Virus record (IMG/VR): IMGVR_UViG_2693429713_000022
Location: 1 to 6,779 of that record
Source: a virus
Taxonomy: Duplodnaviria > Heunggongvirae > Uroviricota > Caudoviricetes
Reading direction: 5' to 3' (one strand)
DNA length: 6,779 bases
Shown here in pieces: positions 1-6,779 of the stretch. Within the stretch, counting starts at the first letter, position 1; every line of letters starts with the position of its first letter. Position numbers and translations under genes: made by a program. Below the pieces are notes generated by a model, which saw only the letters and a list, made by a program, of their open reading frames with translations, was not told the DNA's origin and did not search any database.

Positions 1-12
1 GGTTTGGGAGAA
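1..12. other. Inner half of a candidate Din-family crossover site (site A); core and outer arm would lie just upstream of the window
   Basis: GGTTTGGGAGAA is the exact reverse complement of the 12-bp arm TTCTCCCAAACC found in sites B and C. Only half the site is visible, so this is provisional. Confidence 0.45.
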
Positions 13-453
13 GCGGCAAAACGAAATGTGGGCAACGGGGAAAACCAAATCCCTGATATGTCTTTCTGGACGGTTACTGGTGGCAATGGAAATTTTGTGA
101 TTCGTCAACCTGACGGGCTAATCATTCAGATGGTTACTGTAAGTATAAGCGGTCCAGTGGCGATGAATGGAATGACTGATAATGCTTATGCCATTACAGG
201 TTCTAATAAGTCTTATATTGCCACAGCCACATTGCCCTTTGTATTTCCTAATAAGGTGCTGGGCGTTATCCCTCTGGTATCAACAACAGCTTATGGTGGT
301 GTATCCAGTAATATTACAGGTTCATACGCGACGGCGGTTTGTTCTTTTGCCGCTGTCAGGGGGAATAATACGATTGTGTTCAAAGTCGACAAACCACTGA
401 ATGCAGCCTTTCCTTCAGATACCAGCGTCTCAGCGTTAATCATTGGACGGTAA
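1..453 (+). CDS. Tail-fibre protein, C-terminal receptor-binding cassette (partial; 5' part of the gene lies upstream of the window); left copy of the inverted repeat
   Basis: Open frame from position 1 (GLGEAAKRNVG...ALIIGR) ending at TAA 451-453, followed 2 nt later by a Tfa-family gene, the usual tail-fibre/chaperone pairing. The same 149 aa are encoded on the minus strand at 2512-2958. Gly/Ser/Thr/Asn-rich composition typical of fibre distal domains. No start codon in the window. Confidence 0.8.
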   Translation, partial: GLGEAAKRNVGNGENQIPDMSFWTVTGGNGNFVIRQPDGLIIQMVTVSISGPVAMNGMTDNAYAITGSNKSYIATATLPFVFPNKVLGVIPLVSTTAYGGVSSNITGSYATAVCSFAAVRGNNTIVFKVDKPLNAAFPSDTSVSALIIGR

Positions 454-455
454 GA

Positions 456-899
456 ATGAACTCAGTATTCTTTTCACCCGCAAGTAAAAGTTTTTATCTG
501 CAAGAATTGTTTCCAGAATATGAGGATGCGGGAACGCTTCCTGATGATGTTATTGAAATTACCAGAGAAACATATGAGCAATTTCTTGGGCTGCATCCAG
601 AAGGGAAAGAAATTGGCGCTGACAGTTCAGGACGGCCAATATGGATTAATTCCCCGCCGCCTTCAAAAGAGGATGAGATGCTGGCGGCTGAAATGAAAAA
701 GATATCTTTGGTTTCAGAAGTCAATACCTACATCAATACCCATCAGTGGCCTGGCAAAGCTGCTATTGGTCGTCTGAAAGGTTACGAGCTGGAACAATAT
801 AATTTATGGCTGGATTATCTGGACGCACTGGAACTGGTTGATACCTCCAGTGCTCCAGATATTGAATGGCCTACGCCTCCGGTAGTTCAGGCCAGATGA
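456..899 (+). CDS. Tail-fibre assembly protein (Tfa family), 147 aa
   Basis: ATG at 456, 2 nt after the fibre stop. C-terminal motif [26 protein letters not shown] resembles the conserved Tfa/Mu-U-type C-terminus and is shared in pattern with the convergent Tfa gene ([28 protein letters not shown]). Its first 54 codons lie inside IR-L. Confidence 0.8.
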   Translation: MNSVFFSPASKSFYLQELFPEYEDAGTLPDDVIEITRETYEQFLGLHPEGKEIGADSSGRPIWINSPPPSKEDEMLAAEMKKISLVSEVNTYINTHQWPGKAAIGRLKGYELEQYNLWLDYLDALELVDTSSAPDIEWPTPPVVQAR

Positions 900-1476
900 C
901 ATCCGGCGCGGTGCTGGTATCTGTTGCAGTCACCGCGTCAATGTAATCCAGCACAGCGTTAAGCCGGGTTGTTTCTGCCTGCGTCAGCTTCCGCCCGGCC
1001 TGCAATTTCAGCTGAATCAGACTAATGGAAGCCATAGCAGCATCAATCAGTGACTGGCGCCGTACTTCTGCCGCGTCTACTGCGGCGTTATGCTGTGCCT
1101 CAGTATCGGTCACCCATTTCTCACCATCCCATTTATCGTATGACGTTAACGGGGCGATAGTGGTTGTATTTTCAGGGTAATCACCCGGAACTGTGATTTC
1201 TTTTGATTCTCCTGTTTCGGTGCTATAGACGATTTCACCGCGATGGTCTGGCACATATTCCCATGAGTTAAAATCTGCAGAACGGCAAATTGCATAACCA
1301 GCTTTATATGAGCCAGGAGCATCTAAACAGGAACATGCCGGGATACCAACACCCACAGCAAGATATTCAGTTGATGTGGAAATATATTCCCGTGTTTCAC
1401 CATCATAATTATAAACGGTAATGTCTCCGGCCTTTGTGGCGATGAGTTCATTATTTAATACAGCTTTACTTATCAT
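871..1476 (-). CDS. Tail-fibre assembly protein (Tfa family), 201 aa, partner of the 253-aa fibre gene
   Basis: Start ATG (minus strand) at 1474-1476 overlaps the TGA stop of the upstream fibre gene as ATGA (1473-1476), suggesting translational coupling. Conserved Tfa C-terminal motif. Its 3' end overlaps the convergent Tfa gene by 29 bp (871-899). Confidence 0.8.
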
Positions 1477-2234
1477 GCAGCCCTCACAATATAATTAAAG
1501 GCGATGTTACGGGAGCGGGTTTCAGATGCTGTGCGAACTGAGCGAGATGCGTCGAATGTCCAGTTATAAGCGCCATAACCCTCAATAATTTCGGCTTCCT
1601 TTAGACCTGTAGATAATACTTGCCCATGTTGACTAAATGGCCCTGAACTAAGTACGTCTCTAAAAAGCTGGGTACGCCCAAAAGAACCAACAATATTCTG
1701 AATTGCATCATTCTGTGCAGATAATAAGTTACGACCAGAGTCAATCCCGCGCCCATCATCCCAGCCACGAATAAATTCACCGCGTAAATCTGGTAATTTT
1801 AATGTTGGGTAAGCCTTTGCCAGATTTGGGTACTTTTCAGAAGAAAATACTGCTCCGTTACATTTTAGCCACCCCGTTGGCGGAGTGGCGGAAGGCCACG
1901 GAACAGGCACACCAACGGGTAATGCCGAACCTTCTCCCAAACCAAGGTTTTCGAGAGCCGTTTTCACCGTGCCATCAGATTTGATATCGCCAAACGGATT
2001 CTTGCGGCTTAACAGCAGCGCACGAAGCGCGGTAAGCAGCTGGTCATGCCGCCCCTTCTCCAGGCTGGCACCGGATGCCTCCACCACGCTGCAGAGTTCT
2101 TCCTGCAACATGTCAAAGTAGTCATCATCCAGATCGGTGGCAGGTGTGCCGGTCTGGGGGTTACCACGGGTAAAACCGTTCTTACCCGCGCCGAACTTAT
2201 CCTTCTGCGCGGTTTTCGTGTCTATACGATGCAT
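1473..2234 (-). CDS. Small tail-fibre protein, 253 aa, with N-terminal fibre-attachment-type motif and phage tail-collar-like domain
   Basis: GGAG ribosome-binding site (plus-strand CTCC 2241-2244) 6 nt upstream of ATG 2232-2234. N-terminus [21 protein letters not shown]...[20 protein letters not shown] resembles conserved tail-fibre N-termini of the Mu S / P2 H type. The segment [12 protein letters not shown]...YPNLAKAYP...[17 protein letters not shown] (about 1746-1901) matches the tail-collar signature as I remember it. Crossover site B lies inside the gene at codons about 93-101. Confidence 0.8.
1932..1957. other. Candidate Din-family (gix/hix/cix/pix-type) 26-bp crossover site B
   Basis: TTCTCCCAAACC-AA-GGTTTTCGAGAG: two 12-bp imperfect inverted arms (9 of 12 positions symmetric) around a 2-bp AA core with the AAACC/GGTTT inner motif. 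It matches the hixL sequence I recall (TTCTTGAAAACCAAGGTTTTTGATAA) at about 20 of 26 positions. It sits at the constant/variable junction of the fibre gene, encoding ...ENLGLGE... on the minus strand. Confidence 0.65.
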
Positions 2235-2257
2235 GGATTACTCCGGATATTTAAAAA

Positions 2258-2509
2258 TTACGTAGGTATGCGAAGGGCAGAGTTTGTTAAGCACACACTC
2301 GACAACGGTGTCGCCCCAGATACGCAGTGCGGAATCACAGGGATCACGCCAATTTCTTTCCCTTCTGGATGCAGCCCAAGAAATTGCTCATATGTTTCTC
2401 TGGTAATTTCAATAACATCATCAGGAAGCGTTCCCGCATCCTCATATTCTGGAAACAATTCTTGCAGATAAAAACTTTTACTTGCGGGTGAAAAGAATAC
2501 TGAGTTCAT
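2258..2509 (-). pseudogene. Truncated Tfa remnant: 54 N-terminal codons from IR-R fused to 29 unrelated codons
   Basis: The first 54 aa are identical to the Tfa gene at 456-617. After the inverted-repeat boundary (2347/2346) the frame continues into unrelated sequence ([29 protein letters not shown]) and stops at 2258-2260, 83 aa total versus 147 aa for the intact copy. Confidence 0.55.
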
Positions 2510-2964
2510 TCTTACCGTCCAATGATTAACGCTGAGACGCTGGTATCTGAAGGAAAGGCTGCATTCAGTGGTTTGTCGACTTTGAACACAATCGTATTAT
2601 TCCCCCTGACAGCGGCAAAAGAACAAACCGCCGTCGCGTATGAACCTGTAATATTACTGGATACACCACCATAAGCTGTTGTTGATACCAGAGGGATAAC
2701 GCCCAGCACCTTATTAGGAAATACAAAGGGCAATGTGGCTGTGGCAATATAAGACTTATTAGAACCTGTAATGGCATAAGCATTATCAGTCATTCCATTC
2801 ATCGCCACTGGACCGCTTATACTTACAGTAACCATCTGAATGATTAGCCCGTCAGGTTGACGAATCACAAAATTTCCATTGCCACCAGTAACCGTCCAGA
2901 AAGACATATCAGGGATTTGGTTTTCCCCGTTGCCCACATTTCGTTTTGCCGCTTCTCCCAAACC
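2347..2964. repeat. Inverted repeat, right copy (IR-R), partner of 1-618
   Basis: See IR-L. The outer end at 2964 is set by the window start (position 1 pairs with 2964) and coincides with the end of the 12-bp arm of crossover site C, so the repeat may end at the recombination site. Confidence 0.9.
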
Positions 2965-3006
2965 AACGTTTATGAAAATGCAGAAATAACGAGCAAATGG
3001 CATCAT
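2512..3006 (-). CDS. Tail-fibre C-terminal cassette, pin-proximal copy; apparently lacks an N-terminal constant part in this orientation (silent or fragment cassette)
   Basis: Encodes the same 149 aa as 1-453 on the minus strand. The ORF extends only 14 codons beyond crossover site C to an ATG at 3004-3006 (MMPFARYFCIFINV...) with no fibre-like N-terminal domain. This resembles the short fibre fragment gene next to pin in e14, as I recall it. Confidence 0.6.
   Translation of the reverse strand: MMPFARYFCIFINVGLGEAAKRNVGNGENQIPDMSFWTVTGGNGNFVIRQPDGLIIQMVTVSISGPVAMNGMTDNAYAITGSNKSYIATATLPFVFPNKVLGVIPLVSTTAYGGVSSNITGSYATAVCSFAAVRGNNTIVFKVDKPLNAAFPSDTSVSALIIGR
2953..2978. other. Candidate Din-family crossover site C, next to the invertase gene
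   Basis: TTCTCCCAAACC-AA-CGTTTATGAAAA: left arm and AA core identical to site B, right arm more degenerate. It lies 55 bp upstream of the invertase start, the position where gix/cix-type sites sit relative to gin/cin. On the minus strand it encodes ...INVGLGE... in the same frame as site B. Confidence 0.6.
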
Positions 3007-3032
3007 TCCTGCTTTTGTCAGGGAGATCTACC

Positions 3033-3587
3033 ATGCTTATTGGCTATGTACGTGTGTCAACAAATGACCAGAACACAGATCTACAACGTAATGCGCTGAA
3101 CTGTGCAGGATGCGAGCTGATTTTTGAAGACAAGATAAGCGGTACAAAGTCCGAAAGGCCGGGACTGAAAAAACTGCTCAGGACATTATCGGCAGGCGAT
3201 ACGCTGGTGGTCTGGAAACTGGACCGACTGGGGCGCAGTATGCGGCATCTTGTCGTGCTGGTGGAGGAGTTGCGCGAACGAGGCATCAACTTTCGTAGTC
3301 TGACGGATTCAATTGATACCAGTACCCCAATGGGGCGCTTTTTCTTTCATGTGATGGGGGCCCTGGCTGAAATGGAACGAGAACTGATTGTTGAACGAAC
3401 AAAAGCTGGACTGGAAGCTGCTCGCGCACAGGGACGAATTGGTGGACGTCGTCCCAAACTTACACCAGAACAATGGGCACAAGCCGGACGATTAATTGCA
3501 TCAGGAGTTCCGCGCCAGAAAGTTGCGATTATCTATGATGTTGGCGTATCGACTTTGTATCAGAGGTTTCCGGCAGGAGATAAATAA
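3033..3587 (+). CDS. pin: Serine DNA invertase of the Pin/Gin/Cin/Hin (Din) family, 184 aa
   Basis: N-terminus MLIGYVRVSTNDQNTDLQRNAL is the hallmark Din-invertase start, with the catalytic serine at residue 9 (codon 3057-3059). The rest is near-collinear with Gin/Cin as I remember them (GDTLVVWKLDRLGRSM, GRFFFHVMGALAEMERELI, and a C-terminal HTH region GVPRQKVAIIYDVGVSTLYQRF). GGGAG ribosome-binding site at 3021-3025, 7 nt before the ATG. The track ORF starts at 2997, but 3033 is the supported start. Family assignment is confident; the pin symbol is by context (e14-like neighbours), not proven orthology. Confidence 0.93.
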   Translation: MLIGYVRVSTNDQNTDLQRNALNCAGCELIFEDKISGTKSERPGLKKLLRTLSAGDTLVVWKLDRLGRSMRHLVVLVEELRERGINFRSLTDSIDTSTPMGRFFFHVMGALAEMERELIVERTKAGLEAARAQGRIGGRRPKLTPEQWAQAGRLIASGVPRQKVAIIYDVGVSTLYQRFPAGDK

Positions 3588-3785
3588 AGACACAGCTCGT
3601 CGAATTCAAGAACGTGTGAGCCAATCTCATGATGATTCATTATTTTCACATAGAGTCAATGACAAAAAACGGCTGCAAGGTAAACCACAACGATGGCTTT
3701 GTTAATTGATAGCGGTTTTGGTACTAAATGATACAAATTAAAATGAATATCCTAGTGAATTACAACAATTTCAGGAGGAAATAGT

Positions 3786-3998
3786 ATGCCAAGAAAAACG
3801 CTAGAAAATTTGGTAAATGTTGCACGTCAGACTCAGGAAATAGCGGATAAGAGAAGCCGTTTTTTCGGGTATCTTGAACAGCATGGCTTGAAGAGGAATG
3901 AGGATAGTGCTCACCTTTTTGCTATGCATTTACGGTTGCAACACAATGAAAGAGATAATCTTGTCCATGAACTGATGTCCGGATTACATCATAAATAG
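3786..3998 (+). CDS. Hypothetical small protein, 70 aa, basic and His-rich; function unknown
   Basis: Strong AGGAGG ribosome-binding site at 3773-3778, 7 nt before ATG 3786. AT-rich. Convergent with the two-gene operon. I recognise no family. Confidence 0.5.
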   Translation: MPRKTLENLVNVARQTQEIADKRSRFFGYLEQHGLKRNEDSAHLFAMHLRLQHNERDNLVHELMSGLHHK

Positions 3999-4032
3999 TG
4001 CATCATTCGAGCAAGAATATTATAAGACAATA

Positions 4033-4055
4033 AACCAGCCAAAAACTGGCTGGTT
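4033..4055. terminator. Candidate bidirectional intrinsic terminator between convergent genes
   Basis: Hairpin AACCAGCC(A)-loop-(T)GGCTGGTT with an 8-9 bp stem, flanked by T-rich sequence on the minus-strand side (TATTGTCTTATAAT) and a TTTTT run 10 nt away on the plus-strand side. Lies between the 70-aa gene stop (3998) and the 114-aa gene stop (4083). U tracts are imperfect. Confidence 0.5.
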
Positions 4056-4082
4056 GAACGTTAACTTTTTGAATTTAATCAA

Positions 4083-4427
4083 TTAACTTTGGTGTATGTC
4101 TTGGTAAGTCTCATCCGTCAGAGCCAATTTCATGCAAATATCATCGTTAAGACTGACAATATCTTCGATCAGTTTATTGATCTCGAAATCGTTAAGTTTT
4201 GATACTGTTGCTTGAACTCGCCCCTCATCGCCAGTGGCATCAAACTTAGTCAGTTCCTTACATAATTCATCGAACCTGCTTTGTAAGGCATTTGGAATAT
4301 CATCGGCTGTTTTAAGATGCCCAAGGCTAAAAACATACGAATTAATCAAGCGTTCTTGAATACTTCCATGGCCCGCAAGAGTAAGTACTGCAGTATGAAA
4401 TTTTTCATGTGCATACTTTAAGGACAT
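4083..4427 (-). CDS. Hypothetical protein, 114 aa, mildly acidic; second gene of the cargo operon
   Basis: GGAGA ribosome-binding site (plus-strand TCTCC 4434-4438) 6 nt before ATG 4425-4427. Lies 51 bp downstream of the 343-aa gene on the same strand. AT-rich. No recognisable motif. Confidence 0.6.
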   Translation of the reverse strand: MSLKYAHEKFHTAVLTLAGHGSIQERLINSYVFSLGHLKTADDIPNALQSRFDELCKELTKFDATGDEGRVQATVSKLNDFEINKLIEDIVSLNDDICMKLALTDETYQDIHQS

Positions 4428-4478
4428 ATCTGGTCTCCGTGACTTATAACCTCAACCGACATAAATGGGGTTAAGTGA

Positions 4479-5510
4479 TTATTCTGAAACAATAGTGTTG
4501 AACTGACCTATAGAAACAGCACCCTTTTCAATTACCTCTAAGTAACTGATTTTAATATGAGAGTTGTTTGACAAAGCGTCAACAATAGCTGTCAACTCAT
4601 CTTGGGTGATAACATCAGCTGAAGCTTTGATTGTGAAGCATTCGTCATTAGAGACCCTAACAACGTTAATATTAATATCCTGATTTGTTGGCCCTGTTCT
4701 GGTTACACCTTTGATGGAAAATATATCAGTTCGTTCTTTACGTTCTCTATCTACAGATTGTCGGCTGTTGTAGGTATTTAGGTCTTGTCGTGTTAGTTTC
4801 TCATTTCCTAAAGTCACGGTTTCGACAGTAGGATCAGCAGCTAATTGCTTCACTAAAGCACTTTTACCTGCTTGTCCGTGACTAGTAACTTTATCGCTAA
4901 TCGCTGATTTCCCATAGATTTTATAATCTAATGTTGCTTCTATGGCTTTGTTTATGCCATCGGATGTGGTTTTTGCAATTTCAACCTGCCGATCAGTTGC
5001 ATGTCTTTCTGTTACGGCATTTTCTGAAATGTAGTGATAACCACATGTGCTGGCCGCGCCAACCATTGTGATTATAACAAGCATTTTCTGCCAGCCGTTC
5101 AGTCCAGACATAGTATCTCGCAAAAAATCAGTTACTGCGTTGATGATCTTGTCAGTGGTGCCTTCCGCATCACTAGAACCTTCGCTAATTTTAAAATTTA
5201 TATCAAGTCGTTGCTTGTCTTCATTAGTCAAGCGTTGAAGATTCTGCGATCCGTATCGTATGGTTGCAAACGCCCGCTGTATCTCCTCGTTGAGCATTGA
5301 CATACCAAACAACATTGCTGATGTAATTGATGAATGATACCGCTCTCCTTTTACATTTATGTCTAAGGATGGCCAGCCTGCAAACTTTACGTTAGGGAAA
5401 ATAAACTCTTTAGAATCAAGCCCCTCTCGGGCTTTCATTTCTTCCAGAAAGTTTAGAAAATCATCTTCACTACGGATCAGAAAATCAATCGAATCCACAG
5501 TAGCTTCCAT
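4479..5510 (-). CDS. Hypothetical protein, 343 aa, with a central hydrophobic (possible membrane) segment; first gene of the cargo operon
   Basis: Long ORF in an AT-rich region. AAGGA ribosome-binding site (plus-strand TCCTT 5518-5522) 7 nt before ATG 5508-5510. Hydrophobic stretch GWQKMLVIITMVGAASTCGYHYI at about residues 139-161 (roughly 5028-5096). No catalytic motif I can name. Confidence 0.75.
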   Translation of the reverse strand: MEATVDSIDFLIRSEDDFLNFLEEMKAREGLDSKEFIFPNVKFAGWPSLDINVKGERYHSSITSAMLFGMSMLNEEIQRAFATIRYGSQNLQRLTNEDKQRLDINFKISEGSSDAEGTTDKIINAVTDFLRDTMSGLNGWQKMLVIITMVGAASTCGYHYISENAVTERHATDRQVEIAKTTSDGINKAIEATLDYKIYGKSAISDKVTSHGQAGKSALVKQLAADPTVETVTLGNEKLTRQDLNTYNSRQSVDRERKERTDIFSIKGVTRTGPTNQDININVVRVSNDECFTIKASADVITQDELTAIVDALSNNSHIKISYLEVIEKGAVSIGQFNTIVSE

Positions 5511-5560
5511 ATGAATATCCTTATTAAATTCTCATTCGGTTACTGTTTATTGTTGACTGA

Positions 5561-5589
5561 TCAATAAAAAAGCCCGCAATTTGCGGGCT
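5561..5589 (-). terminator. Rho-independent terminator on the minus strand, downstream of ssrA and directly upstream of the cargo operon
   Basis: Minus strand reads GCCCGCAA-ATT-TTGCGGGC (stem from 5571-5589) followed by TTTTTTATTGA (5570-5561). Confidence 0.65.
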
Positions 5590-5719
5590 TCTTTCACACT
5601 TGAGAGCCGCGGCTCCTTTGCGTATCCTTTTTTGTCTCCTCACCGTCTGGTCGGTGTCCTGCTGAGACTGCTAACTTCCTGTTTTTGTTGGTGTTGTCCT
5701 TACACCGTCCAATCATGAT

Positions 5720-6082
5720 TGGTGGAGCTGGCGGGAGTTGAACCCGCGTCCGAAATTCCTACATCCTCGGTACTACATGCTTAGTCAGTCTTTACATTCG
5801 CTTGCCAGCTGCGGACGGACACGCCACTAACAAACTAGCCTGATTAAGTTTTAACGCTTCAACCCCAGGCAGGGCTTCCACGCGATCTCTTTTGGGTTTG
5901 ACCTCTCTTGATCCCCGTCCTAAGAGCGGAGGCTAGGGAGAGAGGGCTCTAAGCAGGTTATTAAGCTGCTAAAGCGTAGTTTTCGTCGTTTGCGACTATT
6001 TTTTGCGGCTTTTTACGAGGCCAACCGCCCCTCGGCATGCACCTTGGGTTTCGCAAATCCCGTCGAATCCAGAATCAGCCCC
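5720..6082 (-). ncRNA. ssrA: tmRNA (SsrA), 363 nt
   Basis: Reverse complement of 6059-6082 is GGGGCTGATTCTGGATTCGACGGG (tmRNA 5' end) and of 5720-5760 ends ...GGGTTCAACTCCCGCCAGCTCCACCA (tRNA-like 3' end with CCA). The tag reading frame GCAAACGACGAAAACTACGCTTTAGCAGCTTAA (ANDENYALAA-stop) is the reverse complement of 5961-5993. Matches the E. coli-type tmRNA as I remember it along its length. Confidence 0.95.
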
Positions 6083-6096
6083 AATGTGTAAAGGTA

Positions 6097-6102
6097 AGTA
6101 TA
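6097..6102 (-). promoter_or_regulatory. Possible -10 element (TATACT) of the ssrA promoter
   Basis: TATACT on the minus strand about 14 nt upstream of the mature tmRNA 5' end, consistent with a short processed leader. I found no convincing -35, so this is tentative. Confidence 0.3.
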
Positions 6103-6296
6103 CCAGATTTATGAGCGCCATGACCAGCCTCAATGGCGTTATCGTTAAAGATTTAGCACCCATGTAGCCTGATTTTTATTCGATTAAGCAATGGGATGGC
6201 AACATTTGTGTCGGATGTGATAGCCAATAAGATGTTGATTCGCGCCGCCGGAGAGGGAGGCGCGGTGAGGAACTGGTCAATAATTGGAGTGCAGGT

Positions 6297-6779
6297 TTAA
6301 CGGTGGGCGTTTTTCATGATACGTGCTTTATCCACCTGCCATTCGCGTTCTTTGATATCTGAACGTTTATCGTGCTGTTTTTTACCTTTGGCGACGCCGA
6401 TTTTCACTTTGCACCAGGCATTTTTCCAGTACAGGGAGAGCGCCACTACGGTATAGCCTTCTCGATTGACGCGACCGTACAATGAGTCCAGTTCGCGCTG
6501 GTTGAGAAGTAACTTGCGGGTACGGGTAGGATCGCACACCACATGCGTGGAGGCCACGGCCATTGGCGTGATGTTAGCGCCAAACAGAAATGCCTCTCCG
6601 TCACGCAGAAGGACGTAGCTGTCGCTGATATTGGCTTTTCCTGCGCGCAGGGATTTAACCTCCCAGCCTTGCAGGGCAAGTCCCGCTTCGAACTCTTCTT
6701 CGATAAAGTATTCGTGACGGGCGCGCTTGTTAAGCGCGATGGTCGCTGAACCAGGTTTATGTGCTTTTTTCTTCGTCAT
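6297..6779 (-). CDS. smpB: SsrA-binding protein SmpB, 160 aa
   Basis: Full-length [75 protein letters not shown]... with the start codon at the last three bases of the window (6777-6779). Directly upstream of ssrA on the same strand, the canonical smpB-ssrA arrangement. Confidence 0.95.

Follow-up and report, generated by a model that had tools for sequence, protein, structure and literature searches.

Does the tail-fibre locus analyzed here carry a DNA inversion system with more than two crossover sites, or is it a simple two-state switch? The window (the whole stretch of DNA that was analyzed, 6,779 nt) contains three matches to the arm of a Din-type crossover site: one at its left edge, one within a fibre gene, and one adjoining the invertase gene pin. 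A preliminary description took them as sites A, B, and C, and proposed that inversions between A and each of the two others would generate more than two states, as in Min of p15B or in shufflons. Our analysis indicates that the locus is probably a classical two-site P-segment/pin fibre switch, and that the third "site" is a duplicated inner arm and not part of an evolved multi-site system.

The three matches are exact, as described: the 12-mer TTCTCCCAAACC is found at 1-12 (-), 1932-1943 (+), and 2953-2964 (+). Two of them belong to complete sites. Site B consists of TTCTCCCAAACC, the dinucleotide AA, and GGTTTTCGAGAG, and its translation includes ENLGLGE; site C consists of TTCTCCCAAACC, AA, and CGTTTATGAAAA. 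Both have the form of Din sites, with imperfectly symmetric 12-bp arms flanking a 2-bp core, and their assignment to this family is borne out by the alignment to the pair of sites of the K-12 e14 element. A scan of the window for AAACCNNGGTTT recovered B and C as the only complete sites; its two other matches, at 4811 and 5971, have two mismatches each and are at the level expected by chance. The core and outer arm of site A are absent from the window.

1..12, minus strand: "site A", an inner half-site only (TTCTCCCAAACC), the same as the inner arm of site C
1932..1957, plus strand: site B, a complete pix site of 26 bp where Sc meets Sv, matching the stfP-side site of K-12 e14 at 26/26 positions
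2953..2978, plus strand: site C, a complete pix site of 26 bp adjoining pin, matching the pin-side site of K-12 e14 at 26/26 positions

The match at the left edge lies at the tip of a much longer repeat. Positions 1-618 and 2347-2964 form an inverted repeat of 618 nt that is 100% complementary. The partner copy terminates with the inner arm of site C, so the match at 1-12 does not count as an occurrence of its own, and the proposal of a third site there is not supported. The structure of the repeat becomes apparent upon comparison with the complete genome of strain 602687 (L002). The window from 1 to 2347 is the reverse complement of positions 6276-8622 of this locus, and the window from 2347 to 6779 corresponds to its positions 8005-12437, in both cases with 100% identity. 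The two blocks meet at a fold-back junction, hereafter J2, whose breakpoints are 1.73 kb apart in the reference and have 1 nt of homology in common. On the ymfQ side, the fragment between 2347 and 2238 matches positions 6276-6385 of L002 in reverse complement.

1..618, plus strand: left duplicate arm, with the Sv' cassette and 163 nt from the start of tfa'; it matches L002 8005-8622 in reverse complement
2347..2964, minus strand: right duplicate arm, the copy adjoining pin, in the same position as in the reference genomes
2346..2347, no strand: fold-back junction J2, where the ymfQ 3' end, in reverse complement, abuts the interior of tfa'

The three-site layout rests on this one singular illegitimate junction at 2346/2347. 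It also accounts for the orientation of the complete sites. Sites B and C are indeed direct in the window, as had been reported, and this is because of the fold-back; in L002 they are inverted, with the gene order ymfQ, Stf, Tfa, Tfa', Sv', pin.

The genes around the sites are those of a fibre switch. The earlier reading of the locus as an invertible tail-fibre switch, with one site at the constant/variable junction of the fibre gene and another adjoining pin, is in agreement with the following features.

1..453, plus strand: Sv', alternative C-terminal cassette of the fibre, with a gp53-like C-terminal domain; its frame is open to the window edge
456..899, plus strand: Tfa', tail-fibre assembly chaperone for Sv', 147 aa (Caudo_TAP, E=6e-27)
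871..1476, minus strand: TfaE-like tail-fibre assembly chaperone for Sv, 201 aa (Caudo_TAP, E=6e-32)
1473..2234, minus strand: Stf fibre gene, 253 aa, made of the constant part Sc (2234-1958) and the variable part Sv with its collar domain (1931-1473)
2238..2346, minus strand: last ~110 nt of ymfQ, a Mu gp48-like baseplate gene, cut at J2
2258..2509, minus strand: chimeric truncated Tfa' ORF, 83 aa, with 54 Tfa' residues followed by an antisense-ymfQ tail
2512..3003, minus strand: silent copy of Sv' with a short non-fibre leader (MPFARYFCIFINVGLGE...)
3033..3587, plus strand: pin, serine DNA invertase of the Din family, 184 aa; its catalytic serine lies in YVRVSTNDQ
5720..6082, minus strand: ssrA (tmRNA), a marker of where the prophage remnant is inserted in the chromosome

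Pin has the features of the small serine recombinases of the Din family: an N-terminal catalytic Resolvase domain (Pfam, E=1.5e-51) with the active-site serine, and a C-terminal helix-turn-helix (HTH_7). It matches the structure of Gin (3UJ3) over residues 1-181 with E=1e-93, and is identical to PinE of K-12 at 180 of 184 positions (98%). The residues described as contacting Fis and the enhancer in Din invertases, namely Q..RL in helix 1 of the DNA-binding domain and a set of basic residues (PMC3798978), appear to be conserved in Pin as QAGRL, K46, K47, and R50. In Din systems the Fis-dependent recombinational enhancer acts in cis and usually lies within the 5' part of the invertase gene; a scan of positions 2979-3300 with a degenerate Fis motif gave several weak pairs spaced by 46-50 bp, none of them decisive. 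The host element is an e14-like prophage remnant, with a Mu-type tail module, inserted beside ssrA. The three genes between pin and ssrA had no match in Pfam or PADLOC, and matched only a PHROG of unknown function.

None of the 23 related loci used for comparison has more than two half-sites: 21 have one on each strand, 1.8-1.95 kb apart, and L012 and L015 have one. The complete genome that is 100% identical to the window (strain 602687) has two inverted sites and an adjoining invertase gene, and the contigs carrying the 253-aa Stf all show the classical gene order (10/10). The three-site layout was found in no related element. In the nearest genomes an IS3 element has truncated the prophage remnant, leaving ymfQ and what comes after it. 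The counterpart of the silent Sv' copy is a 163-aa gene beside pin in all relatives.

Both states of the segment are found in nature. The gene order is classical in both L001 and L002, and the segment of one is reversed relative to that of the other. Their sites have kept the outer arms and swapped the inner flanks, as in a reciprocal exchange that falls exactly on the sites. The alternative fusions made in the flipped state are in frame: in strain CD45, Sv' is joined in frame to Sc (...ENLGLGEAAKRNVG...). Among complete genomes, the two states of the pin-side junction are almost equally frequent (742 vs 753).

These observations are consistent with the following scheme. In its normal layout, the locus reads ymfQ, Sc, site B, the segment Sv-tfaE-tfa'-Sv', site C, and pin, with B and C inverted. 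Dimers of Pin would bind both 26-bp sites and, together with an enhancer bound by Fis, on which the reaction presumably depends, assemble an invertasome. Cleavage at the central AA, rotation, and religation, as expected from the strand-exchange chemistry of the family, would then flip the 1.94-kb segment. The short constant head Sc, which ends in ...ENLGLGE encoded by the site itself, would thus be fused alternately to Sv or to Sv'. One state would produce a fibre with the collar domain and its chaperone TfaE, the other a fibre with the gp53-like domain and its chaperone Tfa'. The third half-site of the window is the pin-proximal inner arm repeated by the 618-nt duplicate, in a contig that halts at the crossover core.

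This switch is very close to the P segment and pinE of e14 in K-12. Both 26-bp sites are identical, the invertase differs at a few positions only, and the genes follow in the same order: ymfQ, stf with a short Sc head, tfa, tfa' (reverse), stf' (reverse), and pin. In e14, as here, the segment is found in both orientations in natural genomes (PMC12529663), and the e14 site sequences are the inverted repeats reported for the 1797-bp P segment that was inverted experimentally (PMC12529663). There are also differences. The present element lies beside ssrA, whereas e14 is at icd. Its segment is 1943 bp long, compared with 1797 bp in K-12, because the cassettes differ from those of K-12. The nucleotide identity to K-12 is 89-97%, and in parts only. 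Finally, unlike e14, this contig bears the fold-back duplication. The e14-type Pin switch is already well known, and only the three-site layout is peculiar to this contig. The biological weight of the locus is small. It is the textbook e14 P/pin fibre inversion, a system for which a role in phage defence has recently been reported as well (PMC12529663).

The window begins at an assembly break, since draft contigs routinely start exactly at the crossover core. The partial product that starts at base 1 of the window is on record in 1479 blocks, 1370 of which are on contigs shorter than 2 kb. In the 10 places shown, it is at the end of the contig in all of them, and each contig starts with TT followed by the half-site. 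Draft contigs that break exactly at Din crossover cores, together with fold-back joins, can thus mimic a three-site switch and mislead, so that counts of sites at the edge of a contig need to be checked in complete genomes.

The junction itself was searched for extensively. A 120-nt query spanning J2 had no match in 5426 complete genomes of E. coli, and exact DNA scans found none in GTDB genomes, JGI metagenomes, or IMG/VR. Exact protein look-ups gave no match for the 83-aa chimeric ORF or for its 38-aa partial form. A homology search for this ORF among 5.8 billion protein clusters gave no match covering more than 75% of it; the other truncated Tfa' proteins in this search have different tails. 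Two origins for J2 were considered and rejected. Neither parental sequence resembles a Din half-site, which speaks against a quasi-site used by Pin. A mis-join at a repeat boundary between two prophage copies was discarded as well: divergence among related cassettes sets in at 635-846 instead of 619, and neither at 618/619 nor at the ymfQ breakpoint do they show a repeat boundary that could account for a mis-join. Other copies of ymfQ have a SNP at the breakpoint base, probably a coincidence because SNPs occur there every 20-30 nt. J2 resembles the joins of tandem inversion duplications and fold-back chimeras, which are inverted, link points as close as the 1.7 kb seen here with almost no homology, and surround a unique middle with a long perfect inverted repeat. 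It differs from them in that a single junction is visible in this window. We lean slightly towards a mis-join or a sample artefact over a heritable rearrangement.

The most serious alternative is that the source strain truly carries a recent inverted duplication, for example by an asymmetric join of the tandem-inversion-duplication type, resulting in an accidental three-site arrangement. We regard this as rather unlikely, in spite of several elements in its favour. J2 has no k-mer overlap and probably needed real spanning reads: a k-mer graph assembler cannot make a 1-nt join that is unspanned, and the junction may therefore exist in some of the sequenced molecules. The breakpoints are just 1.73 kb apart and the join is inverted; close inverted joins are typical of template switching, and not of random chimeras. 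A short-read contig of such a structure would be expected to cross the unique middle and to stop at the outer end of the repeat, and this contig breaks exactly at the crossover core. Under this alternative, a complete site A would lie upstream, be it a duplicate of site C or a hybrid resulting from Pin exchange, and Pin could invert A x B (1.94 kb, the normal switch) as well as A x C (2.96 kb). Yet, draft assemblies in general break at this core, with no third site required, and the contig crosses B and C unbroken, with no sign of the heterogeneity of multiple isomers. The layout is a singleton, absent from the 5426 complete genomes, the three contig collections, and the 5.8 billion protein clusters. 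The two arms are 100% identical, which makes the event at best very recent, and A x C would make no new fibre because the duplicate adds no new cassette. It seems doubtful that the end of the P segment nearest pin has newly been duplicated in inverted orientation, placing three or more complete pix sites on one chromosome and letting Pin make extra isomers. If so, the locus would be a natural snapshot of a two-site Din switch starting towards a multi-site region like Min, even if a modest curiosity in itself, with an accidental extra site and no new fibre variant. The recurrence of the 38-mer GGAATCACAGGGATCACGCCAATTTCTTTCCCTTCTGG in unrelated isolates of E. coli would favour a heritable rearrangement.

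An evolved multi-site system, in which at least three sites shuffle several cassettes as in Min of p15B or in a shufflon, is very improbable. Six or seven complete sites are present in Min of p15B and in the R64 shufflon, along with several different cassettes. The likeness is superficial, in that one region holds more than two site matches and these lie in both orientations. It comes down to the pattern in this window, with one half-site inverted relative to two direct ones. In contrast with those systems, there are two complete sites and two distinct cassettes here (Sv and Sv'), since the third is a 100% identical duplicate of Sv'. With just two different fibre cassettes there are no extra coding states. 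The relatives have at most two sites, the layout is conserved nowhere, and in this arrangement a chaperone gene is truncated and ymfQ is cut short. The shufflon of R64 uses a tyrosine recombinase, Rci, and 19-bp sfx sites; the present locus has a serine invertase alone and 26-bp pix sites. Furthermore, wild-type Din invertases are limited to inversion between sites of the same molecule (PMC3798978).

Last, that the three matches are chance occurrences deserves practically no credence: the motif is short, which is all that speaks for it, and three exact copies were found where 0.61 matches are expected even when tolerating 2 mismatches, with B and C identical to the e14 sites over all 26 positions and the copy at 1-12 inside a perfect repeat of 618 nt.

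The two-site switch favoured here also resembles the G segment and gin of Mu, and the C segment and cin of P1. All have a Din-family serine invertase beside the segment, two opposed sets of fibre C-terminus and chaperone, and one site within the fibre gene. Mu and P1 differ in that the constant part of their fibre is much longer and in that they are active phages, not remnants. Their crossover sites are also different, namely gix and cix, as against the pix sites of the present locus.

The window is E. coli DNA adjoining ssrA and smpB, with the following features.

1-453, plus strand, and 2512-3003, minus strand: two copies of Sv', a gp53-like C-terminal fibre cassette
456-899, plus strand: Tfa', tail-fibre assembly chaperone
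871-1476, minus strand: TfaE-like tail-fibre assembly chaperone
1473-2234, minus strand: fibre protein of 253 aa with a collar domain
1932-1957: site B, complete 26-bp crossover site, two 12-bp arms with an AA core between them
2953-2978: site C, complete 26-bp crossover site, two 12-bp arms with an AA core between them
3033-3587, plus strand: pin, serine invertase (Resolvase and HTH_7; Gin structure, E=1e-93; 180 of 184 residues identical to K-12 PinE)
3786-3998, plus strand: gene of 70 aa, between pin and ssrA
4083-4427, minus strand: gene of 114 aa, between pin and ssrA
4479-5510, minus strand: gene of 343 aa, between pin and ssrA
5720-6082: ssrA (tmRNA)
6297-6779: smpB

The preliminary description called three Din-type crossover sites and proposed a multi-site inversion system. 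The site calls hold up: B and C match, at 26 of 26 positions each, the pair of sites of the P segment in K-12 e14 and are true pix sites. In e14, these are the inverted repeats reported to bound an experimentally inverted segment of 1797 bp (PMC12529663). All three arm matches are also present, as the 12-mer TTCTCCCAAACC occurs at 1-12 (minus), 1932-1943 (plus), and 2953-2964 (plus), for a chance expectation of only 0.61 matches with 2 mismatches permitted. However, the match at the left edge is an inner arm alone and duplicates that of site C. Positions 1-618 and 2347-2964 form an inverted repeat of 618 nt with 100% complementarity, whose second copy has the site C inner arm at its end. Since the arm at 1-12 is the tip of this repeat, it is not an independent occurrence. 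Scanning the window with the core-flanking pattern AAACCNNGGTTT revealed no complete site beyond B and C; it also gave two matches with 2 mismatches (4811 and 5971), no more than chance would produce.

Of 5426 complete E. coli genomes, a single one covers at least 80% of the window, and only piecewise. Positions 1-2347 are the reverse complement of 6276-8622 in the locus of strain 602687, and positions 2347-6779 correspond to 8005-12437 of the same locus, both with 100% identity. The window is thus a classical locus folded back on itself; in 602687 that locus has the order IS3, ymfQ, Stf (the constant part Sc plus the cassette Sv), TfaE, Tfa' (reverse), Sv' (reverse), and pinE, with two half-sites in inverted orientation. 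It is the fold-back that places B and C in the same direction in the window and gives the appearance of a third site. None of the 23 comparison loci has more than two half-sites, and where both are present one is on the minus and one on the plus strand; the classical order is found in all ten contigs encoding an identical Stf protein. Hence, a three-site, multi-state inversion system is unsupported, its layout arising from the fold-back.

Both orientations of the segment occur in nature, with exchange precisely at the sites. Strain CD45 has the same locus as 602687 with the segment flipped: the inner flanks are exchanged (TGCCGC vs CGAACC) and the outer arms have not moved. In the flipped state, Sc and Sv' are fused in frame (...ENLGLGEAAKRNVG...) and Sv is fused to a silent leader. 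The two states of the pin-side junction (2880-3030 in the window, 10969-11119 in CD45) are about equally frequent, in 742 and 753 complete E. coli genomes, respectively.

The locus has two pix sites, a PinE-type invertase, and two opposed sets of cassette and chaperone. From what is known of Din invertases and from PMC3798978, dimers of Pin bound to the inverted pair of sites would assemble with a Fis-bound enhancer and cut at the AA core, and subunit rotation followed by religation would leave the 1943-bp segment inverted. Wild-type enzymes perform only inversion, and only between sites within a single molecule, and their Fis/enhancer contacts have been described (PMC3798978); by our own reading against that work, Pin keeps the putative contacts QAGRL (helix 1 of the DNA-binding domain), K46, K47, and R50. 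Scanning 2979-3300 for a degenerate Fis motif yields several weak pairs, spaced 46-50 bp, with none decisive. The fibre proteins are unable to build a tail, because an IS3 element has truncated the remnant, leaving ymfQ and the genes after it. They may act in defence, as StfE2 does in K-12 (PMC12529663). The recombinase, the form of the sites, their inverted pairing in the reference layout, and the occurrence of both orientations all agree with the Din family. In contrast, every feature tested differs from multi-site systems: there are two complete sites and two distinct cassettes, and the layout is not conserved. A shufflon is ruled out, as the recombinase is a serine enzyme. What the window shows is an already known system, on a contig that folds back and stops at a crossover core.

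At the fold-back junction (2346/2347), nucleotide 163 of tfa' abuts the reverse complement of the final ~110 nt of ymfQ, which creates a chimeric ORF of 83 aa. In the reference, 1.73 kb separates the two parent points; they have 1 nt in common, and neither looks like a Din arm. The junction stands alone: it is absent from the 5426 complete genomes, GTDB representative genomes, JGI metagenomes, and IMG/VR, look-ups of the chimeric ORF and its partial form returned no record, and among 5.8 billion protein clusters the coverage of this ORF never exceeds 75%. We lean slightly toward an artefact, that is, a mis-joined or chimeric contig, even though a k-mer assembler requires spanning reads for such a join. 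A repeat boundary as the cause of a graph mis-join was found at neither breakpoint. Slightly less favoured is that the sequenced strain carries a genuine inverted duplication of very recent date; against this, the layout is seen nowhere else and adds no new cassette. A duplication that brings a complete third site is rather unlikely; if true, the resulting multi-site arrangement would have arisen by accident and be short-lived. Unrelated truncated or frameshifted public variants of Tfa' (P0002, P0009, P0010, P0011) break a few codons from ...HPEGKEIG, close to the window breakpoint (window ~600-620 being tfa' codons 47-54), and the tfa' stretch GGGAAAGAAA may be fragile or error-prone.

In the assembly collection, 1479 blocks record the product of 150 aa encoded from base 1 of the window; the longest contig with this product is shorter than 2 kb in 1370 of them, and its gene lies at the extreme contig end in all ten places shown. 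Ten draft contigs with the same partial gene (L013-L022) all open, within bases 1-14, with the core "TT" and the same half-site. Breaks at the crossover core are thus routine in draft assemblies, and we infer that the causes are the repetition of the cassette between prophages and the flipping of the segment within cultures. These contigs were drawn from P2-like, Mu-like, and e14-like prophages, with an identical Sv'/Tfa' cassette in all; the cassette is common to different prophage families. The sequence upstream of "site A", sought in the preliminary description, is unassembled in these ten contigs. On the right, the window stops exactly at the smpB start codon, so it was cut at a gene boundary. 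For its left end, the simplest explanation is a contig end plus 2 nt, which puts it in frame with the partial gene.

The 70-, 114-, and 343-aa genes accompany pin beside ssrA in many E. coli genomes. Searches of Pfam and PADLOC gave no match for them, and the sole match of the 343-aa protein is phrog_6191, of unknown function; the three genes may be cargo that the remnant carries, perhaps with a role in defence. At the other side of the island, close to ypjCB and ypjA, lies a recombinase pseudogene fragment (6001-6147 in CD45, 3570-3716 in 602687) with 84% identity to 147 nt of pin (window 3156-3302); it probably remains from a further copy of an invertase. In another locus, L009 (~14990-20760), the match to the window stops at window base 5722, the 3' end of ssrA, and is followed by a P4-like element (primase, AlpA), which suggests that the ssrA attachment site is occupied in tandem.
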